Part shown: piece by piece, positions 1 through 34,286 of the stretch
Numbering within the stretch: the stretch's first letter is position 1
How the letters are laid out: every line of letters begins with the position of its first letter
Origin: Candidatus Chisholmbacteria bacterium RIFCSPHIGHO2_01_FULL_52_32
GTDB lineage: Bacteria; Patescibacteriota; Microgenomatia; UBA1400; Chisholmbacteraceae
Direction of reading: 5' to 3'
Length of the DNA: 38,367 bases
Assembly: GCA_001816585.1 (NCBI GenBank)
Contig: MHCJ01000002.1
Coordinates: forward strand, 1 to 38,367
Made by a program: the position numbers and the translations under genes
Notes under the pieces: model-generated
The model's input: the letters and a program-made list of their open reading frames with translations, nothing else
Told to the model about the DNA's origin: nothing
The model's database searches: none

Positions 1-1422
1 GGGCGTCAGTCCACCCTGGTTGACAAGGTTCGACCTTGTCAGTCCTCCCTCCTTCGCCTCGCCGGAGTCCTGGACGAAGGCGGGTCCCCTCTGCTCTTCG
101 CTCTCTGCCATCCGCCCTCCACCCTCAACCCTCGACCCTAAACCCTCTCCTCTCATCATCCCTATCCCGAACACCCTCCCCAACCAGCCAATTGGGAACT
201 GTGGACTTTTGACTTTTGACTTTTGACTTTGGACTACTCCTTCTCCCGCCTCACGGGAGAAGGAGAGGACCACTGCCAACGTGAAGTAGTATTTCAAACT
301 ATATAAAAAGAATACGCTCCCCATCATAAGCGCAATTGAAGCAAACACCCATCCCATAGCTTGATAGAGGCTCGCGGCTGATCCAATCAGCCTCCCCCAC
401 TCAAAGCTGCCAAACAGAATGAGAAATACAAGAAGGAGGAACGGAGAGGAGCGGAACAAAGAAGAAAGAGCCGGAACTAACCCCGGTGCCGCCGGCCCAG
501 AGGGCCTCAGGCCCGGAGGGGGTCCCGCCGGAGCCCGCGTCGGCACGAACTGCTCAAACACCTGCTTCAGACGGCCAAGCCAGGATAGTTCCGGCCGTAC
601 ATCCAGTATCTCTTCGGCCTGCCGCCGTAAAAACCTTGCATACGCTTCCCGCAAGGACACAGAGGCAAGGTTATGGCTGCGCAGCACTTTCCATACGGTA
701 AAGCTTGAGGCGGGCACAAAGCTTGCGAGCCTGTGGACGGAAAGCCGAGGCTGGCTCGCAACAAGTGATAGAAGTTTCTCCTCTATCAACGGGTAAATCG
801 CCCGCGGATGTGCAGCCGCGCGAGCATATCGCTCCCGAAATGCCTCCGAACTAATCAACCCGATTTCTGATGCCCTCTTATACTTTTCAATCCACTTATA
901 GATAGTTTTTCTGGCAACCCCATGTCGTTTCGAAAGCTCGGAAATCGGTACATTCTCATCAATTGCCTCCCTGACGATGGAAAGCTTGATTTCCGGAGTC
1001 AACCGCCCCGGCCCCGACCACTGCTTGGCAAAAACCCTTCGAAGTGCCGGCGTTGAAACCCCGAGTGAACGTAGCAGCTTAAAAACACCAAAGTACCCGA
1101 CGGAGATGCCCCGCTTCTTTAACTCATAGCTGAACTTCCTGCATCCCCATTCGGGGTGCGCTACGGCCAAACGAACAAGCACTAGACGCGCCGCTTCAGC
1201 CGCTATCCTTGGGTGGCGATCTCCTGAAACATACCGAGGTTCAAGTGAAGCAGCCTTAAGCCGGGCCGGGCTACTTTGATATCGCTTAATCCATTTATAG
1301 ATAGTCTTGCGGGCGACGCCGAACTCTCGACTGACAGCAGAAACGGGTTTTCGCGCCTGAAGAACCGCCTCAACGGCCTGGCGCTTAAGTGAAGAAGAAA
1401 TGCGGAGCCTCTGGGCAGACAT
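1..1422 (-). CDS. Partial CDS whose 3' end runs off the window start: N-terminal 474 aa of a paralogue of the HTH-HTH-TM-GT2 fusion at 2843..7765
   Basis: Absent from the ORF track because no stop lies in the window. Hand check: ATG is the complement of 1420-1422, and no tta/cta/tca triplet occurs in frame down to position 1. An upstream in-frame stop lies at 1486-1488. The translation has two HTH modules (MSAQRLRISSSLKRQAVEAVLQARKPVSAVSREFGVARKTIYKWIKRY... and ...ISELSKRHGVARKTIYKWIEKY...). TM helices follow (...WVFASIALMMGSVFFLYSLKYYFTLAVVLSFSREA...), colinear with the first ~470 aa of the 1640-aa ORF. Nucleotide blocks 164-189 and 268-354 match 6441-6466 and 6575-6661. Confidence 0.8.
   Translation of the reverse strand, partial: MSAQRLRISSSLKRQAVEAVLQARKPVSAVSREFGVARKTIYKWIKRYQSSPARLKAASLEPRYVSGDRHPRIAAEAARLVLVRLAVAHPEWGCRKFSYELKKRGISVGYFGVFKLLRSLGVSTPALRRVFAKQWSGPGRLTPEIKLSIVREAIDENVPISELSKRHGVARKTIYKWIEKYKRASEIGLISSEAFRERYARAAAHPRAIYPLIEEKLLSLVASQPRLSVHRLASFVPASSFTVWKVLRSHNLASVSLREAYARFLRRQAEEILDVRPELSWLGRLKQVFEQFVPTRAPAGPPPGLRPSGPAAPGLVPALSSLFRSSPFLLLVFLILFGSFEWGRLIGSAASLYQAMGWVFASIALMMGSVFFLYSLKYYFTLAVVLSFSREAGEGVVQSQKSKVKSPQFPIGWLGRVFGIGMMRGEGLGSRVEGGGRMAESEEQRGPAFVQDSGEAKEGGLTRSNLVNQGGLTP
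115..149. repeat. 7-nt periodic tract CCCTNNA x5, in frame inside CDS 1..1422
   Basis: Units are ccctcca ccctcaa ccctcga ccctaaa ccctctc. The sense (minus) strand reads GGG-N4 x5 and encodes ..GEGLGSRVEGGG.. Confidence 0.8.
204..238. repeat. Heptamer tract GACTTTT x3 plus two degenerate units, in frame inside CDS 1..1422
   Basis: Units are gactttt gactttt gactttt gactttg gactact. The sense strand (AAAGTCA)n encodes QSQKSKVKS. The tract lies in the variable cassette between conserved flanks. Confidence 0.85.
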
Positions 1423-1716: not shown

Positions 1717-1982
1717 CTTATTCCCCTTTGGAGATCGTGCAGTATGAAGCGAGTCGAGCTCGTGCGGGAAACGGAAACTGAACCTGATCCGCCAGCTTGC
1801 GGAGAAGGTAAATTTCCGAGGGCTCCCGCCGAGCGAAACGAAGTGACACCAGCAGAGCTTCACGAGGCACCCTTTCTTGCCTGCCCGCCGTAGTTTCCGA
1901 ATGCGAAGCACGACTAGGTATCGAGCGATCAAGTCGCGAAACGAATGGCGGGGTTACTTCTTTGGGTGCGCAAAGAAGTAAC
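1717..1982. ncRNA. Candidate structured noncoding element, copy X (partner copy at 34005..34194); strand unresolved
   Basis: No convincing ORF in the 800-nt gap. A perfect 12-bp hairpin spans 1953-1982 (gttacttctttg / ggtgcg / caaagaagtaac). The loop-edge gggtgc (1964-1969) is complementary to gcaccc (1867-1872). Blocks are shared with copy Y: ttcccctttgRa, gaRaacgaagtga and gYRccctttctt. Confidence 0.4.
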
Positions 1983-2220
1983 TAGCCTTCTATACGCTCA
2001 ACAGCCGCTGATTCTTTCTCCTCAAAAACAAAAGCATAACTAAACCCCTGCCCGCCAAAGCAACCCGAACGGAGCCTCGACAAATGATCGAGGCGCAGTA
2101 TCGAGAGCGCCGGAGGGCCCGCCCCGCATACGACGTGCCTGAGAGTGTAGGCGGTACGCCACAGATCAGGCAGGATTTGTGCGGGGACCAGAAGACTCAA
2201 CCGTCAGGTTGAGAAAAAAG

Positions 2221-2853
2221 CTATGTTGACCGCACGCTACCCATCAGAGATCCTTTTTCCTCTAATACGTACGCGTAGGAAAACCACCAGAAGAAAAATA
2301 ACCAAGCCAGGACCGCGAGCGTCGAACCGTAGTCATGAAAGACAATCGCAACCGACTGGCCGAAGGCATACGCGATCAGGACAACGGCCGCAATCCGGAA
2401 CAGATTCACCAAAAACGTTCCCAAGAACCCGATCATCCACGCCTTAACCTTTGACAAATCCGTATATCGGTCCCCCTGCAAACCAACCCATGAGGTAATC
2501 ACGAAGAACAACAAAGATTGCCATCCGATGCAGTTCCAGGCAATCTCAACTAATAGTTGAGATTGTCCTGAGCGACTGAAAGGAGTCGAAGGACCCCCTC
2601 CGATCGCCAAATACTCCCCAACAACGCCCGGCTTAAGCCCAAGCGGCCAAAGGATCACCCCCACCATCCTAACCTCCCAGGGAACAACGTAATCTTGGAT
2701 CACCTTATATCCATCTAAACTCATCACAATACGTGTTAATACATCATTGAAAGTCGTTACAAAAGGCATAAAAACCAGTACTACAACCAAGATTATGAAT
2801 ATCCAGATAAAAGTTTCTTTTTCCAATAATATGGTTTTTTGTTTAATGAGCAT
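2221..2853 (-). CDS. Exosortase/archaeosortase-family-like polytopic membrane protein (210 aa)
   Basis: Start chosen at the internal ATG 2853 (MLIKQKTILLEK...). The longer ORF to 2973 would lie inside the upstream gene. Motifs resembling the exosortase Cys/Arg/His set: ..VEIAWNC(108)IGWQSLLFF.., ..FLVNLFR(153)IAAV.., ..AIVFH(173)DYGS... The protein is hydrophobic throughout. It overlaps the stop of the 1640-aa gene by 11 nt. Confidence 0.6.
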   Translation of the reverse strand: MLIKQKTILLEKETFIWIFIILVVVLVFMPFVTTFNDVLTRIVMSLDGYKVIQDYVVPWEVRMVGVILWPLGLKPGVVGEYLAIGGGPSTPFSRSGQSQLLVEIAWNCIGWQSLLFFVITSWVGLQGDRYTDLSKVKAWMIGFLGTFLVNLFRIAAVVLIAYAFGQSVAIVFHDYGSTLAVLAWLFFFWWFSYAYVLEEKGSLMGSVRST

Positions 2854-5800
2854 TTTTCTCCTTGCGCCAACCCTTGAGCGCTTTTGGCAAAAACGGGGCC
2901 AGTACCAATAAAATGAGGGATTTTTCGGGAACTGTCGCGAATTCAAAATTGCCGGTGCCTTGCCGCAAGACAACTCCAGCCTCTGAAATATTGGTAACTA
3001 CTCTCATCGAGGCAACATGGCCCAAGTCTCCCGGACTAAAACCGTATGGGCAACCTCCTACCGATTGGCAAACATCGCTTTCAACCGAATTAGTAGCTTC
3101 GTCCCACCTTAAGAAATAGGCTTGTTCCGATGTATCCTTAATTACGGAAAGAATTAGGTCGTTTTCGCTTGAAGCGTATGTTGCCGTTGCATAAATCAGG
3201 TTGGTTGCGCCGGTAAAAACACTGGAAGACGACCAGCTCCTTCCCGCATCGGTGCAAGGAGTTGCACAGCGATACAGGGTTGATGTATTAGCTCCATTAA
3301 CCGCATGAACATAAAAATCACCATCACTAGTCTTAACCAGACCAAAGCTTGTGGAAGTGTTGGCCGTGTCTATTGCAACTTCGGTTCCCCATGTATTGCC
3401 TGATACATCGCGGTAGTTATGCCTTAAGCCCGTGGCACCGGCCTCCTGCCAAACAAAGTGAATGTTGTTTCCGTCGACTGTTGCTGTCAACTGGTCTGCT
3501 GCGGTAATCCCTGAACCGGTGGTAATATCCGTAAAGGTAACTGATCCGTCACAATTTGCCGTTACTCCCGTTACCTCCAAGACATCCGGATCGTCAGAAT
3601 AACTGACAACGAAGTCCCCGTTGGTCCCTTTATTAATGCTCACATAATCACTAAGGTTTACGTTGCCTAAATCGGCACTGGAACAAACTGCAGTTCCTGG
3701 AGTATCCGAACTGGCGGTATCAATAGATTGAAAGTTGATATCATCCCCCGTGGTGTTTGTGTCGTCAAACCAGGCGACCCAAATGGTAGTTCCATCAAGG
3801 GTAACAACCGGTCCTTCATTGTCTGTATCACCGCCATCGCTCATTAAAACATCGCTTCCGCTACTCCAGCTGGCTCCTCCATTATTGCAATTACTGGAGC
3901 ATTTCCGGTAGGCAATCCTGCCTCCGTCGTTGTGGAAGGCATAATAAGCATTTGAAACATAAACAAGCTTTTGCTCCTGGCCTCCAAAATCAACATCGGC
4001 ATCAACGATATTTCCTGAAACAATCACCGAAGGGTCAAGCACTACTGGATATATTCTATTCGGAGCGCTCGTCCACTCTAAAGCACCTCTTTCCAATTTT
4101 TTGATAAATGTATACGAGGTTAAATCCTTTTCAACCTCGAATTTTATGTCCCTGTTTCTTTCGGACGTATTATTCTTTTCGTAAACTACACCTTCTCCCA
4201 ATTTGAATACTTCATTGTTTTCCTCATCGAATACGCCATACGTTCCATTTGTACCAATAAGTCGGACCTCATGGAGAGCCATCTTCTGCATAATGCCTTT
4301 AATGGGAAGTCTCTCTCTGATGATAAATTGCTCAATAAACCCGCTTGGTTTGATTTTATAAACAAGGTCAACGCCCTCTACTATTTCCTCATAACGAACC
4401 TCTTGGTCATCAATAATGAGGCTTTTCTTTGGACTTACCGCCCCGATACCGGTAATTTCCAGAGTGGTAATTTCCATTTCTCTTTCGCCAATTTTTATTC
4501 TCACTCTTGGTTCTTTGTGAAATATCATCTCCAATTCTCTTCCGTCTTCCTGTGTAACTCTTATCTGTCTCGGTGTGCCTATAACTTCAACCTTAGTCTC
4601 TGGTGTCTTGCCTTCAACAGCGTCCTGAACCGAAACGAATTTCTCTCCCGAGTTTGCCTGGGCAGTGGCTGTAATGGGTATAAAAGGAGCCATGATTACA
4701 AGAAGGCTGGTTATTAATACCACAAGGGAGAATGCCGCATCCCCAGCCCAACGCATATGACGCGGCCTTATTCTGAAGTTTTGGAATCGGTTATTGGCCG
4801 TAGCAAGGACAAGGTAGGGTTGAATCGTACCAATCAATGAGCCCTTGGAAATCCGGCTCTGGAGAGGTGCAGGCCACCTGCTTGGCAGGATTCCGGACAT
4901 AAACCGATAGAACCGTCCCCTCCGAAATATATCCGTGATTCTGCCCGTCTTCGGTGTCCGGAACCAGGGCCCCTCTGAGCGCTCTAAAAATCCCTTCACC
5001 GATGCGTACGCTTGAAACGGGACAAGCAGGTACGAAAGGGTTACAAAAGAGAATATTCCTAAATAATCCCGCTCCTCCGCCTCCTCAAGAAACAACCCGA
5101 CGGTATTGAGAAGTGGCAGAGATAGCAAGTTGGTTACCACCAAAGACCAACCCCACACCTGGGTCCAAAATGGGAGACGGGTACGGAAAACCATCTCAGA
5201 AATAAGCCAGCTGACTGTGCCAATCAGAAAGAAGGCGGCTTGGAGGTAGTAGGGGGAAAGGTAGAGGAACTCCAGTTTCTCTGAAAAAGAGAGGGGGGAA
5301 GGTAACCACACCATTCCCTGTTTCTGGGAGGGATAATTGTTATATTGTTCTATTGTTCTATTGTTTTCCTGTCTGAAACTTTGAACTTTAAACTGTAACT
5401 TTTCACTTTGAACTTTAAACTTTGAACTTTCAACATCCGCCCACCGGCCAAACAGGAGCCTCAGGAATGTCTTGCGGATGTTGAAGGAGTGTCCCTCCGC
5501 CCAGCGCATCCGCTGCCTGACGAGTCGCTGGAGGGTGGACACGCATTCCGCGGGAGCCTGGATATATGGGGTGTATAAGACTTTATATCCCGCTTCGTAA
5601 AGCCTTAAGGTAAGCTCAAAGTCTTCGGTAAGAGTTGTTCCCCACCCAAAACGGTCGAGCAAGTCCCTGCGTATCATATAGACAGACCCGGCAATCAATT
5701 TCATACCACCGTAGAGTTCATTCCCACTCCGCTCAACGACATACGACCCGGCGTATTCGGATCGGATGCCCCTGGTAATCCAGTTCTCCGATTTGTTCAG

Positions 5801-7765
5801 GACATGCCACTGGTAGCCCTGGATAGCGGCGATCGGAGAACTGAAAACTGAAGACTGAAGACTGAAGTTTTGTCTTGAGTCTTTAGTATTTATTTTTAAG
5901 TCAAGACTTCCCGCGCTTGCCTGGAAGTACTTCAGGAACAATTCCAGCGTATCCGGGTACGGGACAAAGTCCGCATCAAACACCACCACAAACTCTGTTC
6001 GGGGGTCACTGACCCGGAGCGCCTCGCGGAGGGCCCCTCCCTTGAAGCCTTCCCGATCTGCACGGTGGATCAGGGTGAATGAAGGAGTATCAGGGGTGGA
6101 AGGGGTAACGTGAAGAATTTCCTCCCCCTGATCTCCCTTGATCTCCCTTGCTTCCCCTTGATATCCCTTCAGGAATCGTTCCACGATTCCTGTTGTCTCA
6201 TCCGTGCTGTCATCGGCGACCACAACCTCGTAGTTTGGATAGTCAAAGGACGTACAGGCTTTAAGGAGTCTCTCTACCACCTTGGATTCGTTGAAAAGAG
6301 GCAGATGGACGGAGATGAAGGGATACCGCTCAAGCTTGACCTGGGATACATCAGGCGTAAGCCCAGTTTGACTGGGTTCCAGTCCCCCTCCCGAAGAGCT
6401 CGATCCCGGATCGGGCATTGACGATCCGGGATCGTTATGGATCCCGAACACCCTCCCCAACCAGCCGATCTTTGAACTGAAAACTGACGACTGACGACTG
6501 AAGTCTTGTTTTGAGTCTTGTGTGCTAAGTCTTGAGCCTTGAGTTAAGTCTTGAGCTTCCCTGGAGAAGCTCAAGACTACTGCCAACGTGATGTAGTACT
6601 TCAAACTATATAAAAAGAATACACTCCCCATCGAAAGCGCGATCGAGGCAAACACCCATCCGAGAAGTTGGACAGGACTGGTTGCGGATCCAAGAAACCT
6701 ACCCCATGCAAAGCTCCCTGACAGAACAAGAGCGGAAAGTACAAAGAAAGGAAGAGATCGCCGCAGCAAGGAAAAAAGAGATCGTACCCCTCCGACTAGC
6801 CCGCCGAAGCCTTGCCGTGCGTCGCCAAAGGCTCTGCCGGCGGCGCGGCGAAGGCGGGAGCCAAAATCAAAGGGGGGCGGCCCGATCGGCGCGCCGGTGA
6901 CAAGAAATTCTACGATCGCAAGCCTCAGGTAATTCAACCATGCGGTCAATGGGTAAACAGGCAAACGGGCCGCGCGAATCTGCCTGGAGTACGCCAGTCG
7001 CCTTTCAATAGTAGATAACCCGCTTCGCTCAAGAACCCGCTGCACTCCATGGTTTCCTACGAATCCCAGTCGCTTCGCAATCTTCCCCGCGGAATACTCG
7101 GGGTAAGCCGCCACAAAGTCAAGCACCACCCGCTCTTTCTCCTTGCGCAAACCCCGGGGATGCTGTGATGCAGAAGGGTTACGGTCCTCCAAAGCAACAA
7201 GCAGTCTCTCATTCCGAGTGATTGCGTCCAGATACCGCCGCTTCCATTTCACCAATGTCTTTCGGGAAACGTGGAATTCCCGGGCCACCTCCCCGCTCTT
7301 CCGCTTCGAAAGAACCACTTCCTCAACCATCCGTTTTCTCGCCGAAGCGTGTAAGCGCAACCACGCGGGAAGCCCGGGCTGAACTTTCGCAGGGATTCGA
7401 TACGAAGATGCAAATGCCTCCCGTTCGATCCGCAACTGAAGCCCCTGATGCTTCAGGAACAACCACACACTCCGAGGGCTCATTTGAATTCGTTGTTCAC
7501 CAAGAGCCCATGAGATCTTATCCGGCCCAAACTCAGGATGGGAAATGATGATGGGAAGGAGCCTGTTGCTTGCGGGCTCACTCCGGCTGACGCGTTTGGC
7601 AGCCGATTCCTCCGGAGTACGCCTGATTTCCGGCCCGTACCGATGAAGCCAAGCGTAGATGGTCTTTCTTGAAACTCCCAGGCGTCTTGAAGCCTCGGCT
7701 TTGGTTACTCGTCCTCGAAGAACGTGTTTGAGGAGGAATCGTACTCTATACGAGAGATTTAGCAT
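2843..7765 (-). CDS. 1640-aa multidomain fusion: 2x transposase-type HTH, TM helices, processive family-2 glycosyltransferase, TM helices, extracellular Asp-box/BNR-like domain and a PEP-CTERM-like tail
   Basis: Single 4.9-kb ORF. HTH modules: ..EASRRLGVSRKTIYAWLHRY.. and ..EVAREFHVSRKTLVKWKRRY... GT2 motifs: ISVHLPLFNESKVVERLL..YEVVVADDSTDET, VVFDADFVP and QRMRWAEGH (QxxRW). Several hydrophobic helices flank the GT2 domain. The C-terminal ~600 aa contain ..NGGASWSS.. and ..DAGRSWSS.. (Asp-box-like). The tail is FEFATVPEKSLILLVLAPFLPKALKGWRKEKNAH. Confidence 0.85.
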   Translation of the reverse strand: MLNLSYRVRFLLKHVLRGRVTKAEASRRLGVSRKTIYAWLHRYGPEIRRTPEESAAKRVSRSEPASNRLLPIIISHPEFGPDKISWALGEQRIQMSPRSVWLFLKHQGLQLRIEREAFASSYRIPAKVQPGLPAWLRLHASARKRMVEEVVLSKRKSGEVAREFHVSRKTLVKWKRRYLDAITRNERLLVALEDRNPSASQHPRGLRKEKERVVLDFVAAYPEYSAGKIAKRLGFVGNHGVQRVLERSGLSTIERRLAYSRQIRAARLPVYPLTAWLNYLRLAIVEFLVTGAPIGPPPFDFGSRLRRAAGRAFGDARQGFGGLVGGVRSLFSLLRRSLPFFVLSALVLSGSFAWGRFLGSATSPVQLLGWVFASIALSMGSVFFLYSLKYYITLAVVLSFSREAQDLTQGSRLSTQDSKQDFSRQSSVFSSKIGWLGRVFGIHNDPGSSMPDPGSSSSGGGLEPSQTGLTPDVSQVKLERYPFISVHLPLFNESKVVERLLKACTSFDYPNYEVVVADDSTDETTGIVERFLKGYQGEAREIKGDQGEEILHVTPSTPDTPSFTLIHRADREGFKGGALREALRVSDPRTEFVVVFDADFVPYPDTLELFLKYFQASAGSLDLKINTKDSRQNFSLQSSVFSSPIAAIQGYQWHVLNKSENWITRGIRSEYAGSYVVERSGNELYGGMKLIAGSVYMIRRDLLDRFGWGTTLTEDFELTLRLYEAGYKVLYTPYIQAPAECVSTLQRLVRQRMRWAEGHSFNIRKTFLRLLFGRWADVESSKFKVQSEKLQFKVQSFRQENNRTIEQYNNYPSQKQGMVWLPSPLSFSEKLEFLYLSPYYLQAAFFLIGTVSWLISEMVFRTRLPFWTQVWGWSLVVTNLLSLPLLNTVGLFLEEAEERDYLGIFSFVTLSYLLVPFQAYASVKGFLERSEGPWFRTPKTGRITDIFRRGRFYRFMSGILPSRWPAPLQSRISKGSLIGTIQPYLVLATANNRFQNFRIRPRHMRWAGDAAFSLVVLITSLLVIMAPFIPITATAQANSGEKFVSVQDAVEGKTPETKVEVIGTPRQIRVTQEDGRELEMIFHKEPRVRIKIGEREMEITTLEITGIGAVSPKKSLIIDDQEVRYEEIVEGVDLVYKIKPSGFIEQFIIRERLPIKGIMQKMALHEVRLIGTNGTYGVFDEENNEVFKLGEGVVYEKNNTSERNRDIKFEVEKDLTSYTFIKKLERGALEWTSAPNRIYPVVLDPSVIVSGNIVDADVDFGGQEQKLVYVSNAYYAFHNDGGRIAYRKCSSNCNNGGASWSSGSDVLMSDGGDTDNEGPVVTLDGTTIWVAWFDDTNTTGDDINFQSIDTASSDTPGTAVCSSADLGNVNLSDYVSINKGTNGDFVVSYSDDPDVLEVTGVTANCDGSVTFTDITTGSGITAADQLTATVDGNNIHFVWQEAGATGLRHNYRDVSGNTWGTEVAIDTANTSTSFGLVKTSDGDFYVHAVNGANTSTLYRCATPCTDAGRSWSSSSVFTGATNLIYATATYASSENDLILSVIKDTSEQAYFLRWDEATNSVESDVCQSVGGCPYGFSPGDLGHVASMRVVTNISEAGVVLRQGTGNFEFATVPEKSLILLVLAPFLPKALKGWRKEKNAH
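2846..2947 (-). other. C-terminal tripartite sorting-signal candidate (VPEK motif, hydrophobic helix with APFLP, basic cluster)
   Basis: FEFATVPEKSLILLVLAPFLPKALKGWRKEKNAH aligns with the tail of the Kelch protein, IVIPERVWLLFGAAPFLPLLLKRRRKE. Confidence 0.55.
5334..5365. repeat. 8-nt periodic tract (NNATTGTT x4) in frame within the GT2 fusion
   Basis: taattgtt atattgtt ctattgtt ctattgtt. The sense strand (AACAATNN)n encodes ENNRTIEQYNNY. The same unit type occurs intergenically at 26902..26949. Confidence 0.8.
5376..5434. repeat. 7-nt periodic tract (AACTTTN, about 8 units) in frame, just downstream of the QxxRW motif in the protein
   Basis: aaactttgaactttaaactgtaacttttcactttgaactttaaactttgaactttcaac encodes ESSKFKVQSEKLQFKVQSF. 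Confidence 0.8.
5841..5908. repeat. Low-complexity module, copy 1: CTGAAGA-type heptamer x4, then gtcttgagtctt-type arm
   Basis: ctgaaaa ctgaaga ctgaaga ctgaagt tttgtcttgagtcttt... encodes DSRQNFSLQSSVFSS. It parallels the module at 6477..6556. Confidence 0.8.
6130..6170. repeat. 10-nt periodic tract (GATCTCCCTT-like x4) in frame
   Basis: g atctcccttg atctcccttg cttccccttg atatcccttc. The sense strand has four GGG(G) runs with 6-7 nt loops and encodes KGYQGEAREIKGDQGE. Confidence 0.75.
6477..6556. repeat. Low-complexity module, copy 2: CTGACGA-type heptamer x4, then repeated (a)agtcttgag units
   Basis: ctgaaaa ctgacga ctgacga ctgaagt cttgttttgagtcttgtgtgctaagtcttgagccttgagttaagtcttgagc encodes ..QDLTQGSRLSTQDSKQDFSRQSSVFSS.. 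Confidence 0.8.
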
Positions 7766-11401: not shown

Positions 11402-13681
11402 ATGAAAATCATCAAAGAACTTTTCAAACGCCTCATTCCTCCGCTAGTCCTGGTTCTCCTACCCATCCTCCTTTTCAATAAAATTGTGCTTGGCAATGTC
11501 ATGCTGGTGACTGGAGATTTTTCCGGAAGCGACCTGTTGGACCTCAACCTTCCCTTCAAAGAAACCCTCCACACCACTATTCCCAAAGGCAACCTGCCTA
11601 TCTGGGAACCCAATTTGTCGCTCGGATTTCCCATCCTCGCGGAAGGACAAATCGGAGTCTTCTACCCCCCAAACGCGATCCTTTCCTTCCTCCCCTCCCA
11701 TCTTGCCCTCATGGGAAGCATCATCCTTGCCTACATCCTCGCCGGTCTGTTTACCTATGGGTATGCCAAAAGCCTCAAGTTTAACCGGTTTTCTGCCTTC
11801 ATTACGGCAATCACCTTTGCCTTCTCCGCCTTCTTCATCACCCGCGTGAAGCACGTCAACATGATCACCGTCTCTGCCTGGCTCCCCTTCCTTTTTTGGG
11901 CGACAAAAAAACTCTTTCAAAGAAAAAACCCGCTCTACGCCTTGGCAATCGGGATCGGTATTGCCCTCCAAGTTCTTGCCGGCCACCCGGAAATGACGTT
12001 CTTTATCCTCTTCGTCTTTCTCATCTACGCTGTCTATGAATTCCTCTTTGCGGTAAAGATAAGCGGGCTCTCCCCAACCCTGCCTCTGGCCGCTATCAGT
12101 CTCTTGATAATAATAACCACATCACTCGGACTTTCTGCCGTTCAAATTCTACCTTCACTGGAGTTCACCGGCCTTTCGGAGCGCACCGAATTTACCGAAC
12201 AGACCGCCACTGCCTATCCCTACAATCCGAAAAACCTCGTCACCCTCATCTCTCCGTACTACTTCGGAAACCCAGCCTCAGGTTCTTATTCACAAGACAT
12301 TCGGATCATGGGAATTTTTTGGGAAAACGCCTCGTACGCCGGTCTCCTCCCGATCATCCTTGCGTTTTGGGTAATCGTAACCACGGTGAAGAGAAAATCC
12401 CGCAATTCCGCCCTCCTCTTCTTTATCGGGCTGGCCGCCGTTTCCCTGCTACTGATGATGGGAAGAAATACCCCGCTCTTCGGAACCCTCTGGAACCTTG
12501 TCCCCGGCTTCCAGCTCTTCCGCTTTCCCAACCGTTTCAACCTCTTTCTCATCTTTTCAATCGCCGTTCTTGCCGGTTCCGGTGCCAACGACCTCATAAA
12601 AAGACTCAAATCCATCCGGGTTAAGCCCCAAGGGAAAACTACCGAAAGTTTCCGCTTTTCCTGGCCCTTGAAAACTCTTCCTACAGAGCTTCTGATCGCG
12701 GGCTTGATTGTACTTGACCAATTCGTGTTCGCCTCATCATATTTCGGCTATCTTCCCCTGGACAAACTCAATAATCAGCCGGAGATCGCCGCGCGTTTAC
12801 GCAAGGACGATGGGATTTTCAGAATGTACAGCCTCACCCAATACGGCCAAAGCCCGTACGCACTAGGCTGGAAGAATAACGAGAACACCATCGTGCCGAT
12901 CCGCGAAGCACTCCCTCCTAATACCAACCTTATCTATAACCTCGCATCGTTCTCTGACCGGTCTTGGTTTGAAGGGGGCTTGGGTACCAAAAGACGAAAC
13001 CGCCTTGAAAACTTCCTGCTTCGGGAAAATCAGAATGCGGCCTTAATCGGAAAGCTGTTGGGAATGTTCAATGTCAAGTACATCATCAGCTTCGCCGACT
13101 GGATGGGAATCGAAATCCAACCGATTGAGGAGTATGGCTTGGGGGATCAGTACGCCACAACGCTCAAACTCTTCGAAAACCTGCAAGTGATGTCGCGGGT
13201 CTTTTACGTTCCTTCAGCCGAGGTGATCAAAGGCGAAGAAAAGGTATTTACGAAGCTCAAAGACCTCGAGTTCAATCCGACGACGAGCGTCATCCTTGAG
13301 GAAGACCCGCGTGAACTTCCCCCCGCCTTCTTCGGCGCGCTCGACGAATTCCAGGCTCGGAATCCCGTCGTCATAAAAAGCATGTCAGACACCGAGGTCG
13401 TCATCGAGTCAGCCATCACCAGCCACGGTTTCCTCGTCCTTTCAGATCTTTACTATCCCGGTTGGAAAGCCACGGTGGACGGCAAAGAAGTGAAAATCTT
13501 CAGGGCAAACTACCTCGTCCGCGCCCTCGAGCTTGACCCCGGCACCCACATCATCCGCTTCTTCTACGACCCCCTCTCCTTCAAGCTAGGAGCAACAATC
13601 TCCGCCGCCACGTTGGTAATAATCCTGATCACCGTTTTGCTTGCAGGCCTCCTTTTTCTCATAAGGAAAAAAAGGCGCTAG
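11402..13681 (+). CDS. YfhO-family membrane protein (GT-C-type glycosyltransferase)
   Basis: 759 aa. Polytopic N-terminal part (..DLLDLNLPFKETLHTTIPKGNLPIWEPNLSLGFPILAEGQIGVFYP..). The C-terminal signature is ..LSDLYYPGWKATVDGKEVKIFRANYLVRALELDPGTHIIRFFYDP.., followed by a terminal TM and basic tail. Confidence 0.8.
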   Translation: MKIIKELFKRLIPPLVLVLLPILLFNKIVLGNVMLVTGDFSGSDLLDLNLPFKETLHTTIPKGNLPIWEPNLSLGFPILAEGQIGVFYPPNAILSFLPSHLALMGSIILAYILAGLFTYGYAKSLKFNRFSAFITAITFAFSAFFITRVKHVNMITVSAWLPFLFWATKKLFQRKNPLYALAIGIGIALQVLAGHPEMTFFILFVFLIYAVYEFLFAVKISGLSPTLPLAAISLLIIITTSLGLSAVQILPSLEFTGLSERTEFTEQTATAYPYNPKNLVTLISPYYFGNPASGSYSQDIRIMGIFWENASYAGLLPIILAFWVIVTTVKRKSRNSALLFFIGLAAVSLLLMMGRNTPLFGTLWNLVPGFQLFRFPNRFNLFLIFSIAVLAGSGANDLIKRLKSIRVKPQGKTTESFRFSWPLKTLPTELLIAGLIVLDQFVFASSYFGYLPLDKLNNQPEIAARLRKDDGIFRMYSLTQYGQSPYALGWKNNENTIVPIREALPPNTNLIYNLASFSDRSWFEGGLGTKRRNRLENFLLRENQNAALIGKLLGMFNVKYIISFADWMGIEIQPIEEYGLGDQYATTLKLFENLQVMSRVFYVPSAEVIKGEEKVFTKLKDLEFNPTTSVILEEDPRELPPAFFGALDEFQARNPVVIKSMSDTEVVIESAITSHGFLVLSDLYYPGWKATVDGKEVKIFRANYLVRALELDPGTHIIRFFYDPLSFKLGATISAATLVIILITVLLAGLLFLIRKKRR

Positions 13682-17565: not shown

Positions 17566-18546
17566 ATGAGAATCTTAGTAACCGGTGGTGCTGGGTTCAT
17601 CGGTACCAACCTCTGCCTTGCCGCCAGGAAAAAAGGCATCAAAGTCCTCGGCATCGACAATCTCTCCAAACGCTCAAGCACAAAGAATCTCCCTCTCCTC
17701 ACCAAAGCCGGTGTCCGCTTCATCCGCGCTGATCTCAGAAAACCCCTTCAATCGCTTGGAAACGTTGACACCATCATTCACCTCGCCGCCCACTGCTCAA
17801 CTCCGCGAAGTTTCCGAAAACCCGTGTCCGATTTTCTCGACAATGCCCTAGGAACACTAAATGTGCTCGAATATGCCAGAAAGCGTGGAAAAATTCCGGT
17901 GATCTATGCCTCAACAATCAAGGTCTATTCGGACACCGTAAACCGCCTCCCGATAAAAGCTACCCGCACCAGATACACCCTGCTGAAAGAAAAAACCATC
18001 GACGAACGGTTCCCGATCGAACCCGGCAGCCATTCTCCGTATGGCTGTTCAAAGTACGCCGGCGATCTCTATTGCCAAGAGTACTGGCAAAGCTTTGGCG
18101 TGCCGACGGTCGTGAATCGACTCTCAACGGTCTTCGGCCCGCACCAACACGGCAGCGAAGAAGCCGGTTGGATCTTCCATTTCGTCAATTCCAAAAAGCA
18201 AAGTCAGCCGGTCACCGTCTTCGGCACCGGCAAACAGGTCCGCGATGCCCTCTGGGTTGACGATCTCACTGGACTACTCCTCAAACAAATAGACAAGATT
18301 GAAAAAGTCAAAGGCAACGTCTACAATGTCGGCGGCGGGAACAAAAATTCCCTCTCGCTTCTTGAGCTCATCGACAGACTCAACAGGAAAGGCGGCAAAC
18401 CGCTGGCGGTGAAATTTGACAAGACAAGACGTTCGGATCTGAAAGTGTTTATCTGCAACCTGTCAAAAATCAAACGGGATCTCCGGTGGCAACCAACCAC
18501 CGATGTCTGGACAGGCATTGACACGCTCTATCAAGAGCTACCATGA
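17566..18546 (+). CDS. NAD-dependent epimerase/dehydratase (extended SDR)
   Basis: MRILVTGGAGFIGTNL (GxxGxxG) and YGCSKYAGD (YxxxK). Confidence 0.85.
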   Translation: MRILVTGGAGFIGTNLCLAARKKGIKVLGIDNLSKRSSTKNLPLLTKAGVRFIRADLRKPLQSLGNVDTIIHLAAHCSTPRSFRKPVSDFLDNALGTLNVLEYARKRGKIPVIYASTIKVYSDTVNRLPIKATRTRYTLLKEKTIDERFPIEPGSHSPYGCSKYAGDLYCQEYWQSFGVPTVVNRLSTVFGPHQHGSEEAGWIFHFVNSKKQSQPVTVFGTGKQVRDALWVDDLTGLLLKQIDKIEKVKGNVYNVGGGNKNSLSLLELIDRLNRKGGKPLAVKFDKTRRSDLKVFICNLSKIKRDLRWQPTTDVWTGIDTLYQELP

Positions 18547-18708
18547 ATAATACAGATATTCACGGTGAGGACAGCCAATTTTCGCAAGCTGCGATGGCCA
18601 GGCTATAAGCCTGGTTAAACAGGCACGTCTACAGAGAACTTGCACCGAAACCTTCAGCAGCCAAGAAAATTGTTGCTGCCCGAACCGCGGGGACTAAAAT
18701 TGAACCTT

Positions 18709-21845: not shown

Positions 21846-21898
21846 TTTTTTATCTCAAATTCATCGACTCTTTTATTCTCAATTCTTAAATCTTCTCC

Positions 21899-21940
21899 CC
21901 CCTAAACCCTATACCCTAAACCCTAGACCCTAGACCCTCT
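21899..21940. repeat. Telomere-like 7-nt tract CCCTANA x6, spanning the stop of CDS 21916..22824 and the spacer before the next gene
   Basis: ccctaaa ccctata ccctaaa ccctaga ccctaga ccctctc. The sense strand has six GGG runs with 4-nt loops. The last codons of the epimerase (..GEGLGSRV*) come from this tract. Confidence 0.85.
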
Positions 21941-26884: not shown

Positions 26885-26901
26885 GTCTCTCTATGTGCTC
26901 T

Positions 26902-26949
26902 TTATTGTTATATTGCTAAATTGTTACATTGTTGAATTGTCAAATGGTT
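26902..26949. repeat. 8-nt periodic tract (NNATTGTT x6) immediately 5' of the yfhO-like start at 26884
   Basis: ttattgtt atattgct aaattgtt acattgtt gaattgtc aaatggtt. A duplicated tatagccat follows further on (26960-27000). Confidence 0.8.
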
Positions 26950-27004
26950 GATCTGATGAACTGCACAGCAGTATAGCCATAGAACAATATAGCCATTAAA
27001 CAAT

Positions 27005-31460: not shown

Positions 31461-31486
31461 AAATCGTAAATCCAAAATCCTCTCCC

Positions 31487-31514
31487 ACCCTCTACCCTAA
31501 ACCATAGACCCTCT
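31487..31514. repeat. 7-nt periodic ACCCTNN tract in a gene junction
   Basis: accctct accctaa accatag accctct, lying between the stop at 31520 and the next start at 31460. Confidence 0.7.
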
Positions 31515-31519
31515 GTCTG

Positions 31520-33772
31520 CTATTCCTCCTCGCCTGATGGTGTCGCTTCCCCGCTCGGCGTTGCCTCCCCAGCACTTGCCGTTGCTTCCCGCGCTTGAGC
31601 CTCGATCGCCTTATCCTGAATATCAAGAATCATCCCTTGGGCCGCCTGTCCCAACTCAAGCTCACCCGGTGTTAGCACCGATTGGTACTTCTGGAGATAG
31701 TCGATCGCTTGAAGGTAGTCGGGCGGTTCAAGTTTATATCCGTACACCCTTGCCAAACTCGCCAAGGCTTCCTTGAAATACGGATCGATCTCGAGCACCC
31801 GCTTGTACTCCCGTATCGCGTCATCAAAAAGCTTGACTTCTTCATACATAAATCCTGCATTGAAAAAATGCCGCGCGTAGTAGAAAACCACCGTCTCTTC
31901 AAACATCGGTGTGTTGCGCCGCACCTTCTTAACCATCTCAAGATTAATCCCGTCCCAAAGCGCATCGTTTTCCGTCCGCAAGTCTTCAAGTTTGAGATCC
32001 TCTCCCTTCTTCTTGACTAAAAACAACAGGTTTTTCGGATACAGCACATACTTTTTTTCAAGCTCGGGATCGTGAACCACCAGATCCGGCCCGACGTAAA
32101 CCGGCCGCCTGCCGTAGTTGGCATCCACAATCTGGGTGGCCGTGGTAAATTGCTTCCCTTCCAACGGAAAAGGGATAAAAAGGTCAGGGTACTTTCTCAG
32201 GAGTTGAGGCGTGAACCAGGGAAGGTGGAATTGTCCAGGGGTAAAGCTAACTCGGCTATCCTTCCCCGCCAGCTCAACCATCCGAAAGTAATCGACCGTC
32301 ATATTGGGAACGTCACCGGAAAGTAAGATCAGCGCGTCCGGCTCGGTAGGACTATACGCTTGTCTGGCATACAACTGCGTGAAGGTATTTCCCCCGCCGT
32401 TTGCCTTGGCAAAGTTCACCAAAACCAAACCGGAAAAGAGAAGAAAAAGATACGCCTTCCCCAACCACAATCCCAAAAGGTAAGCTGTTTTCCTCACCCG
32501 AATCCCTTCGATAAGCCGGTACAATTCGTAGATACCGAAACTGATGGCCAAGGCCACGAACAGGTGAGGCAGCATTTGGAAACGCCGTACGGTCGACTGG
32601 TTGAAGCTGTCGGAAAGCGGGAAATTCGCGTACGAAAGGAAGAGGATGCCGGAAAACCCCAATCCCAAGAGCAAAAACCAAAACATCCGCCGCTCCTGCC
32701 GGAACAGGCGGTATCCGCCGTAGACAGCCAACCCAAACCCCACCACCGAGAAGTCAAGAATGAGGTTTCGAAGGTAAAACACCACCTGCTCTACCGGTGT
32801 TGCTCTCACCACGGGCGATGATCCGACCAAAAACGAGCCGAAGGTGCCGAAGTCGCGCCTGACAAGCGCCGCCAGGGCACCGCCGACCCCATCGACCTCC
32901 CCCCAGTTTAAAAGCGGTTTTCTTGCAGCAATCCATAAAAGCGAGACAAAAAACGGCAGCGTGCCCAGAAGCAAAGCTCCCAGCGTAACTCCCAGCCGCC
33001 TCCAGTCGCCGACAAACGTAAGGAGAGGCCGCCAGATAAGATACAGCACGGCGGGAAACACCAAGATGATGGTTTGGTGATGCGTCAACGCCAGCCCCCC
33101 GACAAGTGCCAAAAGGATGAATCGCCAAATCCCACCCCGACCGACCCTCTTCAACACCCCTTCTTTTGTTGTAGGCAGATTTCCTTGGCTGCCGATCGCA
33201 ACCGCCAACAGAAGCAAAGAAACGGCAAAAAAGTTATTCAGGGGGAACACCTCAAACTTCGTTGCGTATTGCCAGAAGATCAGCGAAAACGCGAGAAACA
33301 TGCTGGCGGAGAACGCTACCAGTCTTTTCCCGCGTTCTCCCACTTGCCCCGCGGTTCCCGCTTTGCGGGGACTTTGCGTGGCTCCCACCTTATCATTCCC
33401 GTGTGCTTCTGAATTTGCATACCCAAACAACGCCAGGACCAGAAAATAGAACGTAAAAACCGTCAGAGCTTGCAGGAATGCCGAAACCGCATTCACCCGT
33501 TCAACCGGATTCATCGTCTGCGCTGTCAGCCTGCCTGCCTCAAGGATCGGCTTTCTCATCCACTCTTGTCGTGACGACAGATACCCGAGAAGCGTATTCA
33601 CCGGATAGCTCGGTTGGTGCGGAACGCCCAATACAATCGCCGCCGTCACCATCTCGGTTGAGTCTCCCGGCGCAATCGACGGATAAAGGGTAAATAAATA
33701 CACCGAAAACGGCAACCCAAACGCCAGAATCGGCAAAAAGATACTAACGAGTCTTTCTATCACTTTCTTCAT
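31520..33772 (-). CDS. DUF2723/TMEM260-like GT-C membrane protein with a C-terminal TPR region
   Basis: ..YLFTLYPSIAPGDSTEMVTAAIVLGVPHQPSYPVNTLLGYL.. is the N-terminal pattern. The TPR-like stretch is ..FMYEEVKLFDDAIREYKRVLEIDPYFKEALASLARVYG... The tail contains the repeat GEATPSGEATPSGEEE. Confidence 0.7.
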   Translation of the reverse strand: MKKVIERLVSIFLPILAFGLPFSVYLFTLYPSIAPGDSTEMVTAAIVLGVPHQPSYPVNTLLGYLSSRQEWMRKPILEAGRLTAQTMNPVERVNAVSAFLQALTVFTFYFLVLALFGYANSEAHGNDKVGATQSPRKAGTAGQVGERGKRLVAFSASMFLAFSLIFWQYATKFEVFPLNNFFAVSLLLLAVAIGSQGNLPTTKEGVLKRVGRGGIWRFILLALVGGLALTHHQTIILVFPAVLYLIWRPLLTFVGDWRRLGVTLGALLLGTLPFFVSLLWIAARKPLLNWGEVDGVGGALAALVRRDFGTFGSFLVGSSPVVRATPVEQVVFYLRNLILDFSVVGFGLAVYGGYRLFRQERRMFWFLLLGLGFSGILFLSYANFPLSDSFNQSTVRRFQMLPHLFVALAISFGIYELYRLIEGIRVRKTAYLLGLWLGKAYLFLLFSGLVLVNFAKANGGGNTFTQLYARQAYSPTEPDALILLSGDVPNMTVDYFRMVELAGKDSRVSFTPGQFHLPWFTPQLLRKYPDLFIPFPLEGKQFTTATQIVDANYGRRPVYVGPDLVVHDPELEKKYVLYPKNLLFLVKKKGEDLKLEDLRTENDALWDGINLEMVKKVRRNTPMFEETVVFYYARHFFNAGFMYEEVKLFDDAIREYKRVLEIDPYFKEALASLARVYGYKLEPPDYLQAIDYLQKYQSVLTPGELELGQAAQGMILDIQDKAIEAQAREATASAGEATPSGEATPSGEEE

Positions 33773-33910
33773 CTCTCATCATCTCCCCTCTATGAATTCA
33801 TCCGCATTTAACCACGTACGCTTCCACTCATCAATCCACTGATAGTATCCGTACCAATCCTGCGCGCTTCGCTTGGCTCTCCTTGGCTCCCCTTGAACGC
33901 AACCGAATAT

Positions 33911-33945
33911 ATGAATCATGAATTATGAGTAATGAATAATGAATT
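33911..33945. repeat. Heptamer tract ATGAATN x5 (intergenic)
   Basis: atgaatc atgaatt atgagta atgaata atgaatt. Nearby are three copies of cc(c)tttgaacRc, at about 33888, 33958 and 34011. Confidence 0.8.
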
Positions 33946-34004
33946 ACAAATAAGGAAACCCTTTGAACACAACCATCAGGATTAGCTTGTAGCTTTTTTA
34001 GTTT

Positions 34005-34194
34005 CTGATTCCCCTTTGAACGCATGCTACTCGAGAACGAAGTGAGCGAATACCACTGAAATGTCATCGACTGTCCGACGAAGGGTTGATCCCGAGGAGT
34101 TTGATGACAAAGGATGAGCGAACGAGTTCCCGAGAGACCGTTCACTGGGGTGCCCTTTCTTCCGCCGCTTTCTTTGGGCACGCAAAGAAAGCGG
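34005..34194. ncRNA. Candidate structured noncoding element, copy Y (partner of 1717..1982); strand unresolved
   Basis: A perfect 12-bp hairpin spans 34165-34194 (ccgctttctttg / ggcacg / caaagaaagcgg). The loop-edge gggcac (34176-34181) is complementary to gtgccc (34150-34155). Blocks are shared with copy X. It sits in a 514-nt gap with no convincing ORF. Confidence 0.4.
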
Positions 34195-34286
34195 CAATCC
34201 ATTTTGGATGAGTAAAGAAATGATCTCCAGTATTGGTGAGCAAAGAGATGACAAACCATGCTTAGCTTCAGCACAGACAACACGAC

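Follow-up and report, generated by a model that had tools for sequence, protein, structure and literature searches.

Two noncoding elements of a Chisholmbacteria contig and a cross-phylum family of pseudoknots with a putative triple helix

The stretch of DNA analysed here (the window) comprises 38,367 nucleotides of contig MHCJ01000002.1 from Candidatus Chisholmbacteria bacterium RIFCSPHIGHO2_01_FULL_52_32, a member of the Candidate Phyla Radiation (CPR), and holds two noncoding elements, X and Y, which are almost certainly conserved structured members of one triplex-pseudoknot family. Genes of the window lie almost all on the minus strand, whereas both elements read from the plus strand, in gaps of 798 nt (X) and 514 nt (Y; 33772 to 34287). 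The 3′ end of each element faces the end of a convergent gene, with the stop of an exosortase-family gene 238 nt from X and that of a Kelch-repeat gene 92 nt from Y; the start of the next gene diverges from the 5′ end in either case. Y is flanked by a terminator-like site of the upstream gene and a promoter-like site of the downstream gene. The closest named homologues of the exosortase-like protein, of 210 amino acids (aa), come from Candidatus Woesebacteria and Daviesbacteria, and the giant gene next to X continues on the source contig (L004, 11432–20633). The two loci read as follows:

1–1422, minus strand: first part of an HTH-GT2-Kelch gene (4877 aa, as called on the source contig of 54 kb) that extends beyond the window
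about 1721–1983, plus strand: copy X, antisense to all flanking genes
2221–2853, minus strand: exosortase/archaeosortase-family gene, 210 aa (gene call; TIGR04178, E 2e-10)
31520–33772, minus strand: TMEM260-like glycosyltransferase gene (PF11028, E 4e-20)
33949–33922, minus strand: promoter-like site of the downstream gene
about 34009–34195, plus strand: copy Y, antisense to all flanking genes
34276–34256: terminator-like site for the Kelch gene
34287–38336, minus strand: 1349-aa Kelch-repeat protein with a VIPER...KRRRK C-terminal sorting tail

Both copies consist of a 5′ domain and a 3′ module built from a pseudoknot strand, a pyrimidine linker and a hairpin with a pyrimidine 5′ arm and a purine 3′ arm. 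The matches named below are to R1, a covariance model of the family built from 32 sequences with the window left out. Copy X, on the plus strand, is laid out thus:

1721–1866: 5′ domain, with CCCCUUUG (1723–1730) as its conserved start, then an irregular rod with GGGAAACGGAAACUGA...AAUUUCCGAGGGCUCCCGCCGAGCGAAACGAAG
1867–1872: pseudoknot 5′ strand GCACCC, complementary to GGGUGC at 1964–1969 in 6 of 6 positions
1873–1878: pyrimidine linker UUUCUU, the proposed Hoogsteen third strand, a parallel match to AAAGAA at 1972–1977
1879–1951: inserted lineage-specific stem-loop of ~70 nt, with its own helix in the minimum-energy fold
1953–1964: hairpin 5′ arm gttacttctttg, read from the sequence
1965–1970: hairpin loop ggtgcg (GGUGCG), read from the sequence
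1971–1982: hairpin 3′ arm caaagaagtaac, in 12 perfect pairs with the 5′ arm
1953–1982: the 12-bp hairpin as a whole, pyrimidine 5′ arm and purine 3′ arm CAAAGAAGUAAC, with an R1 match over 1952–1987

Copy Y, also on the plus strand, is laid out likewise:

34009–34149: 5′ domain, a long irregular rod in which CCCC (34011–34014) and UGAACG pair with CGUUCA and GGGG (34146–34149)
34150–34155: pseudoknot 5′ strand GUGCCC, complementary to GGGCAC at 34176–34181 in 6 of 6 positions
34156–34163: linker UUUCUUCC, UUUCUU parallel to AAAGAA, with CC at positions 7–8 opposite AG
34165–34176: hairpin 5′ arm ccgctttctttg, read from the sequence
34177–34182: hairpin loop ggcacg (GGCACG), read from the sequence
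34183–34194: hairpin 3′ arm caaagaaagcgg, 12 perfect pairs and a possible 13th (34164–34195)
34164–34195: the 13-bp hairpin, purine arm CAAAGAAAGCGGC of the A3GA3 class, within a full-length R1 match (34140–34199)

The inner 8 bp of the two hairpins differ in a single pair (C-G in X, T-A in Y), and the outer 4 bp are wholly different and still paired; the preliminary description of this DNA had reported 12-bp hairpins of exactly this kind, and it was borne out base for base. Its second observation, that a hexamer at the loop edge pairs and covaries with a distal hexamer, held as well: two positions are swapped together between the copies (GCACCC/GGGTGC and GTGCCC/GGGCAC), and covariation extends to the family. 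Among the further shared blocks that it listed, ttcccctttgRa (1721–1732 in X, 34009–34020 in Y) and ccctttctt (1870–1878 and 34153–34161) were recovered, the latter comprising pseudoknot strand and probable Hoogsteen strand, a reading that goes beyond the earlier one; gaRaacgaagtga, on the other hand, reduces to the 10-mer aacgaagtga (1837–1846 in X, 34036–34045 in Y). In the two copies this 10-mer probably represents opposite strands of an equivalent helix, and the colinear Y counterpart of the X block looks like gagcgaacgag at about 34115–34127. Inserts of variable length between the blocks had also been expected, and X has one: the ~70-nt stem-loop, in which CCCGCC (1884–1889) pairs with GGCGGG (1947–1952), sits between linker and hairpin and is missing from Y and from the one further CPR copy (locus L197, described below).

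The 5′ domain of X folds with a z-score of −3.1. Its closing helix is imperfect (CCCC with GAGG), yet the block is kept in L197. As a separate observation, the 5′ block CCCYTTGAACRCA of Y occurs three times in tandem, 50–70 nt apart (33889–33907, 33958–33976, and 34008–34027), and only the last of these begins the Y fold; the triplicate could consist of duplication remnants, alternative starts or protein-binding sites.

By plain BLASTN the similarity of X to Y is marginal (E ~1–6), and mechanical open reading frames (ORFs) overlap both regions, so that chance resemblance or the remains of decayed protein genes had to be considered. However, a colinear chain of exact shared words of at least 8 bases between both intergenic gaps scores 56, against 23 ± 8.6 in 1000 shuffles, none of which reached 56. 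R1 independently recovers Y at E 1e-10 and X at 9e-5, and homologues that show covariation number in the hundreds. Pfam matches none of the overlapping ORFs, and a 49-aa ORF in X appears not to be coding, because its changes relative to the L197 frame are almost only non-synonymous. The family evidence refutes this explanation, whose probability we consider negligible. Other assemblies of the same organism are 100% identical and hence gave no further information.

Homologues were sought with the hairpin core alone, TTCTTTGGGNNCGCAAAGAA, whose 18 fixed bases left only two loop positions free and were scanned against one genome of each bacterial species; the upstream strand, the linker and the outer stem lay outside the query. 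At least 118 loci were found, and about 105 of the 122 matches listed share the longer consensus gGUGCCC-UUUCUUUU-GGUUAC-UUUUCUUUG-GGCACG-CAAAGAAAA-GUAAC (in DNA letters gGTGCCC TTTCTTTT GGTTAC TTTTCTTTG GGCACG CAAAGAAAA GTAAC), the portion of which beyond the core was not part of the query. Carriers among the matches listed are Selenomonadaceae, Rhodanobacteraceae (Dyella, Frateuria, Fulvimonas), Nevskiales, Xanthomonadales, Methylophilus, Desulfobulbales, Nitrospira, Margulisiibacteriota, Latescibacter, and Bacteroidota. BLAST on plasmid and chromid records adds Burkholderia, Paraburkholderia, Ralstonia, Pasteurella, Aeromonas, Pseudoalteromonas, and Ilyobacter, in which loop and partner are entirely different and still complementary. 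What had been described as a structured noncoding element with compensatory changes in two copies belongs to a very large cross-phylum family, with the same hairpin and pseudoknot in more than 120 loci of unrelated bacteria. On Y, R1 gives a full-length match (34140–34199; 50.7 bits, E 1.2e-10) and on the X hairpin a match over 1952–1987 (26.6 bits, E 8.6e-5), with no third copy in the window or in close relatives. E. coli has no copy. A phage origin was rejected, since 2.9 million viral contigs gave 0 matches.

The preliminary description had placed the element outside known RNA classes and proposed an Rfam cmscan search of both regions. No match to X or Y was found in Rfam 15, in which nothing covers the module (gathering thresholds for the window and 16 family loci; E up to 10 for X, Y, and locus L121). 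It had also left room for a known element or a decayed gene; neither a match of the module in Rfam nor one of the overlapping ORFs in Pfam was found. The only Rfam families with matches near family loci are TwoAYGGAY, 5′ of the module, and Bp1_684, 3′ of it. A full-text literature search for words of the core sequence gave nothing relevant, with subscription journals outside its coverage.

Across the family the hairpin has 12–15 bp, with a loop-proximal half U(n)CU3G paired with CA3GA(n), as in X and Y, and an outer stem of 5–7 bp with free sequence. The 5′ start CCCC(N)UUG pairs with GGGG just before the pseudoknot strand, a closing helix that is clear in Y. The commonest subtype adds a second helix, CCGAGYANC with GNRCGCAGG, which encloses variable hairpins and covaries strongly, with double changes in 16 of 27 cases at one pair; most family members have 5′ domains other than TwoAYGGAY. 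In an alignment of 32 sequences 93% of cells form standard pairs, and double changes are seen at four of the five pseudoknot pairs and five of the six outer-stem pairs. Covariation with further homologues, a check which the preliminary description had also suggested, was evident for the loop-to-upstream pairing and for the outer stem (0 of 500 shuffles reached the observed score), and pairing fell to 42–54% in controls with slid partners. These tests are independent of how the loci were discovered, since the query was limited to the core and took in neither the upstream strand nor the linker nor the outer stem. A wider regular-expression survey collected 125 distinct modules with ~17 loop/partner sequences that keep their complementarity; a run of at least five pairs was present in 72% of modules, compared with 25% for mismatched partners. 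The GCACCC/GGGUGC variant of X is also found at loci L035, L066, L119, and L197.

The strand on which the element folds could be read from the same comparisons. In the family hairpin G-U pairs outnumber A-C combinations by 32 to 4, an excess which identifies the folded strand as the plus strand of the window, and a C-G to U-G replacement between the stems of X and L197 fits this assignment. The minimum-energy fold of Y reaches −72.4 kcal/mol (z −4.15) on the plus strand and −66.7 kcal/mol (z −2.55) on the minus strand. It is thus probable, judged from base-pair bias and fold energies, that the element acts as an RNA from the plus strand. One point of location needed correction: both copies do lie just beyond the xrt-like and Kelch genes, but because the family G-U bias and the Y fold energies put the RNA on the opposite strand, antisense to its neighbours (a point not made before), X and Y are not 3′ untranslated region (UTR) elements of those genes.

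The linker between pseudoknot strand and hairpin is complementary to nothing. It mirrors the pyrimidine arm and so matches the purine arm in parallel, with U for A and C for G, and the two change together as follows:

purine arm A3GA4: linker U3CU4 in 52 of 65, the antiparallel U4CU3 never
purine arm A3GA5: linker U3–4CU5 in 18 of 19
purine arm A3GA3: linker U3CU3, the commonest for this arm (23 of 34)
purine arm A3GA2: linker U3CU2, the commonest for this arm (6 of 8)
purine arm A4GA3: linker U4CU3 in 2 of 2 (Pasteurella, left copy)
purine arm A4GA2: linker U4CU2 (L034)
purine arm A3GA2GA2: linker U3CU2CU2 (L028)
purine arm A3GAGA2: linker U3CUCU2 (L058)
purine arm A2GA3: linker U2CU3 (L197)

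In X the match is exact (class A3GA2 with U3CU2), and the lineage-specific insert comes next. In Hoogsteen U.A-U and C+.G-C triples the pyrimidine strand as a rule matches the purine strand of the helix in parallel, and we know of no other constraint that would conserve such a mirror repeat; from the parallel match and this lack of a known alternative we infer a major-groove triple helix anchored by the pseudoknot, which in our judgement likely forms in the 3′ module. The outer stem, always of 5–7 bp, would be about the span that a strand leaving the deep groove can bridge without extra nucleotides.

Mirror repeats are the classical requirement for H-DNA, and the linker and 5′ arm are exact mirror repeats (T3CT4-spacer-T4CT3), which could act as DNA only, by affecting local replication or transcription from a supercoiled duplex. 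H-DNA, however, needs neither a purine arm on the same strand nor a covarying outer stem, a covarying loop pairing or a bias of G-U over A-C, and we consider this explanation very improbable.

Within the CPR, a search of 645 kb of Microgenomates DNA around 80 exosortase homologues, a sample centred on the exosortase gene, returned one further copy, L197 (5709–5909 of a related metagenome contig), and 79 of the 80 loci lack the element. From CCCC to the hairpin foot L197 is ~75% identical to X, and there is no similarity outside that span, so the points at which the similarity begins and stops mark the boundaries of the unit. The 5′ domain of X is likewise ~75% identical to L197 5709–5860, with an indel at a hairpin tip and the C-G to U-G change in a stem; L197 has the same pseudoknot as X and a shorter central hairpin.

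X, Y, and L197 are all antisense to their neighbours, with the 5′ end facing the start of the next gene and the 3′ module 92–245 nt from the stop of a giant VPE[RK]-CTERM gene or of an exosortase gene following one. This arrangement raised the possibility of a cis element of the operons for CTERM proteins (cell-surface proteins with a C-terminal sorting tail), either an antisense RNA or insulator whose transcription converges on the 3′ ends of the giant genes or a structure by which their transcripts are ended or blocked; past the proteobacterial module, the GC hairpin together with the U-rich arm, read on the other strand, does resemble an intrinsic terminator for incoming transcription. Sampling was centred on the exosortase gene, however, and the association with CTERM-tailed and exosortase genes is a lead only. 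Nearly all related loci are without the element, close relatives have other genes directly after xrt, where synteny is lost, a terminator-like site of the Kelch gene itself precedes Y, and family loci outside the CPR lie among unrelated housekeeping genes in each of the four orientation combinations. A cis role is thus quite unlikely.

Flanking genes across the family are unrelated and in all orientations, in favour of an element independent of its neighbours. A riboswitch or leader was rejected since the downstream genes are unrelated. More specifically, the H-type pseudoknot with its first loop in the major groove of the second stem is the architecture of SAM-II, SAM-V and preQ1-II (PMC6061858; PMC7583470), in which case a small molecule held in the triplex would control the downstream gene, and the 3′ arm in Desulfobulbales often contains AUGAAC, at which an ORF starts in some loci. 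Against this, the downstream genes have no common function, many copies (X and Y among them) are antisense to or far from genes, no Rfam riboswitch matches, and the variable register and length of the triplex sequence speak against a fixed binding pocket; a ligand-sensing role therefore has a very small probability. Clustering of ORFs within 3 kb of 122 sites gave no recurring family, and a TnpB/IscB guide RNA or other protein-linked element was discarded; a scan of 60 loci showed no association with tRNA or tmRNA, which were likewise rejected.

The main rival is a repeat of the repetitive extragenic palindromic (REP), REPIN or miniature inverted-repeat transposable element (MITE) type, or another mobile element, in which a transposase encoded elsewhere in the genome would act on the fold as single-stranded DNA, with the RNA-like conservation as a side effect. 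Copies are intergenic and in any orientation, several similar ones occur within a genome or genus (Methylophilus, Dyella, Stenotrophobium), and Paraburkholderia has them at at least 40 places per replicon. About 20% of loci hold head-to-head doublets, with 5′ ends facing and modules 343–625 nt apart, and four hold tandems; most are singlets, and counting thus ruled out head-to-head pairs as the dominant arrangement. The phyletic distribution is patchy, as the single additional copy in the CPR sample illustrates, and pyrimidine-motif triplexes and G-T pairs also form in DNA. On the other side, the halves of doublets are 70–80% identical or not alignable and each retains its own pseudoknot and triplex register, which points to long-term selection on the fold of each half, and not to selection on the inverted repeat as such or to recent copying. 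Within 3 kb of the 118 loci there is no recurrent transposase family, neither X nor Y is accompanied by an inverted partner, viral contigs lack the element, the core is conserved across phyla whereas REPs are species-specific, and 5′ domains such as TwoAYGGAY have conserved loops typical of RNA–protein contacts (PMC4333381). On balance we regard a repeat or mobile element as unlikely.

Several observations concern the arrangement of copies. Diverged head-to-head copies surround a non-symmetric centre of 100–200 nt at L034, L050, L056, L057, L058, L062, L085, L089, L091, L134, L135, and others, and in Methylophilus and Stenotrophobium a whole doublet unit of 600–700 bp is repeated at several loci. 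Extra partial copies (loop, purine arm and GC hairpin only) lie downstream of some proteobacterial modules in the flanks of L091 and L134, and short tandem repeats of about 50 nt follow the module in Paraburkholderia. The partial copies and short tandems are hints of a more complex repeat architecture.

The reading we propose instead is that one structured plus-strand RNA of ~180–260 nt, independent of the flanking genes and capped at its 3′ end, is represented by X and Y as two diverged genes or gene-like copies, a reading that we see as evenly poised between right and wrong. In such an RNA, whose own transcription we infer, a closing helix (5′ CCCC... with ...GGGG) would enclose a variable, rod-like 5′ domain, followed by the 3′ module in the order of a pseudoknot strand of 5–6 nt, a U-rich linker U3CU2–5, and a hairpin of 13–15 bp with its outer stem of 5–7 bp. 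The linker would most likely lie in the major groove of the pyrimidine/purine helix and form U.A-U triples and one C+.G-C triple. This triplex knot, at the 3′ end of the unit, would be a built-in cap that stops 3′-to-5′ exonucleases and so fixes and stabilises the end of a trans-acting small RNA, while the specific function would reside in the variable 5′ domain, which among the TwoAYGGAY relatives shows protein-binding-like AYGGAY loops. The capping role, drawn by analogy, is a tentative proposal that we place below even. It is favoured because the invariant part of the unit is the fold, which lies at its 3′ edge in the CPR and in Selenomonadaceae and lacks a U-tract terminator. What the comparisons show is family membership, strand, hairpin, pseudoknot and the joint change of linker and purine arm in parallel; a physically formed triple helix, separate transcription and capping go beyond them. 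Overall, a structured RNA expressed on its own accounts for the evidence better than a leader, an element of a 3′ UTR or a guide RNA linked to a protein.

A number of points weigh against this proposal. A sigma-70 consensus scan gave no convincing promoter upstream of X or Y, and no U-tract terminator follows X; an intrinsic (Rho-independent) terminator is also absent from the family consensus, and Y has a weak tail, AAUCCAUUUU, which was flagged by a simple terminator scan only. The high copy number (that of Paraburkholderia in particular), the head-to-head pairs and the tandem arrays bring to mind a repeat family more than a classical small-RNA gene. In Proteobacteria a GC hairpin and 45–95 nt of conserved sequence extend past the module, and in Burkholderia the transcribed candidate Bp1_684 starts inside the 3′ arm and runs ~100 nt on, so that the module may not be the 3′ end there; these extensions in Burkholderia and other Proteobacteria argue that the cap cannot hold everywhere. 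The parallel match of the Y linker to its purine arm is incomplete (6–7 of 8 positions). Finally, between the pseudoknot strand of the loop and the 3′ arm there is just one G, and a pseudoknot of 5–6 bp, an intact hairpin top and an in-register triplex may not all fit; they could be sequential or alternative states.

If the structured RNA proposed here is real, it would account for the presence, in a small CPR genome, of two "empty" gaps of unusual length. At ~55 nt the minimal module would be an easy target for probing and structure determination, and a knot that blocks exonucleases would be a compact, portable part for stabilising RNAs.

The remainder of the window has features of its own. 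Repeats with a 7-nt period (CCCTAAA/CCCTATA/CCCTCAA on the plus strand; 103–146, 1478–1507, 21895–21938, and 31483–31512) occupy short gaps just upstream of several minus-strand genes, where the gene strand is G-rich (AGGGTTT); they resemble telomere-type repeats and could be promoter-proximal or form G-quadruplexes. On the minus strand, a 1640-aa ORF (2843–7765) joins transposase-type helix-turn-helix domains, a family-2 glycosyltransferase and a C-terminal beta-propeller-like region with a VPEK tail. It contains in-frame DNA repeats with an 8-nt ATTGTTNT period and GACTGAAG, especially at 5328–5381, 5830–5909, and 6466–6545, and the ATTGTTNT repeat recurs in the intergenic gap at 26896–26957. 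The N-terminal part of the 4877-aa protein is a diverged paralogue of this ORF (window positions 248–445 and 6555–6752, 74%; also 1288–1320 and 7646–7678).

Eight paralogous TMEM260-like/YfhO-type membrane glycosyltransferase genes of about 700–780 aa stand in a row at 9157–33772; seen alongside the exosortase-like gene and the giant tailed surface proteins, the row is suggestive of a large island for cell-surface glycosylation. Three giant proteins share a tail of V/I-P-E-R/K, a hydrophobic PFLP stretch and a basic cluster (34287–34400, 2843–2940, and L197 6157–6260), which matched no named CTERM model in an NCBIfam scan and is probably the sorting signal of the neighbouring archaeosortase-like enzyme. 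A related Woesebacteria contig (L014/L015) has three genes for four-helix-bundle proteins of the 23S rRNA intervening sequence/bAvd-like kind around its exosortase operon:

2959–3330: bAvd-like gene
12797–13198: bAvd-like gene
18231–18620: bAvd-like gene

Such genes often mark diversity-generating retroelements.

Among known systems, TwoAYGGAY (RF01731), an orphan candidate small RNA (Weinberg et al. 2010, PMC2864571) proposed, though not shown, to bind CsrA (PMC4333381) and called "relatively unexplored" in 2025 (10.1101/2024.12.11.627843), comes closest. All three hits in Pseudoalteromonas (52–65 bits; gathering threshold 43 bits) have the module 12–17 nt downstream, and at a Selenomonadaceae locus two hairpins with AUGGA loops (21.9 bits, below threshold) lie just upstream of it. 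TwoAYGGAY and the family share a closing helix P1 of very variable length and are multi-copy, intergenic and not cis-regulatory. They differ in that X and Y contain no A[CT]GGA[CT] anywhere and have no RF01731 hit at E up to 10, so that what they share with the TwoAYGGAY relatives is the 3′ module and closing helix, not the AYGGAY 5′ domain. The published motif and the Rfam model end before the 3′ module, and the original paper, its supplement and later papers make no mention of a 3′ pseudoknot or triplex. An orphan RNA would thereby gain a conserved 3′ domain and a link to a much larger family, with a handle on function in cultivable carriers (Pasteurella, Burkholderia, Pseudoalteromonas and Methylophilus, for example).

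Bp1_Cand684_SIPHT (RF02421) is a Burkholderia small-RNA candidate that was positive by reverse transcription PCR and has unrelated flanking genes (PMC3521395). In B. cenocepacia the 92.9-bit match begins within the 3′ arm of a family module, on the same strand. The candidate is confined to sequence past the module, RF02421 matches neither X nor Y, and in that particular Burkholderia module the loop (GGAAGA) is no longer complementary to its pseudoknot partner. REP/REPIN elements resemble the family in being multi-copy, intergenic and orientation-independent, with inverted doublets, many singlets and compensatory hairpin changes. The family unit differs from these in its greater length (about 130–270 nt per half), its cross-phylum core and its pseudoknot and triplex signature; as for features of MITEs and insertion sequences, no recurring transposase is found near family loci and X and Y are singlets, with inverted doublets seen elsewhere.

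In architecture, the closest counterparts are the triplex pseudoknots of telomerase RNA, SAM-II, SAM-V, and preQ1-II, which have the same order of elements (stem-1 strand, U-rich loop, stem-2 strand, stem-1 partner, stem-2 purine strand) and in which the U-rich loop lies in parallel with the stem-2 purine strand, in the manner of U.A-U triples (PMC7583470, PMC6061858). Our family departs from them in having 6–10 consecutive potential triples including C+.G-C, a stem 2 extended by the outer stem of 5–7 bp, and a third loop reduced to a single G. Neither a template nor an association with a ligand or gene is seen; in Rfam neither X nor Y matches SAM-II, SAM-V or preQ1-II, which excludes membership of these families, and both are antisense to neighbours that are unrelated.

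The element for nuclear expression (ENE) and MALAT1, whose triple helices stabilise the 3′ ends of viral, mammalian and transposon RNAs, offer a further parallel: they too combine two U-rich strands with an A-rich 3′ tract encoded in the genome, interrupted by a C+.G-C triple (PMC4836648, PMC6379651, PMC13541005). They stand at the 3′ end of a noncoding RNA, and the blocking of 3′ decay is the role that might, by analogy, also apply to the family. In an ENE a U-rich internal loop flanked by two stems acts as a clamp on a downstream A tract. The U-rich strands of the family do not face each other across such a loop; the hairpin would instead take up a third strand, from its 5′ side, anchored by the pseudoknot. 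In the parts of two reviews of RNA triple helices (2020 and August 2026) that were available, the bacterial cases named are riboswitches and a group II intron, with no ENE-like element among them, and the literature on bacterial triple helices, subscription journals lying outside the coverage, gave no such element. The chance that the module represents a fold class new to bacteria is substantial. Were this so, a widespread, self-contained, genomically encoded helix of 6–10 triples would be a new structural module beyond the bacterial riboswitch and group II intron cases named in those parts of the reviews. In its widest form, which we put forward as credible but somewhat short of even, the 3′ module may be a new modular bacterial fold, a pseudoknot-anchored major-groove triplex of 6–10 U.A-U/C+.G-C triples, that serves as a portable 3′-end or stability knot of many unrelated orphan RNAs (TwoAYGGAY included) in more than 10 phyla, from Proteobacteria to the CPR, and would be the bacterial counterpart of the triple helices of telomerase RNA, ENE and MALAT1.

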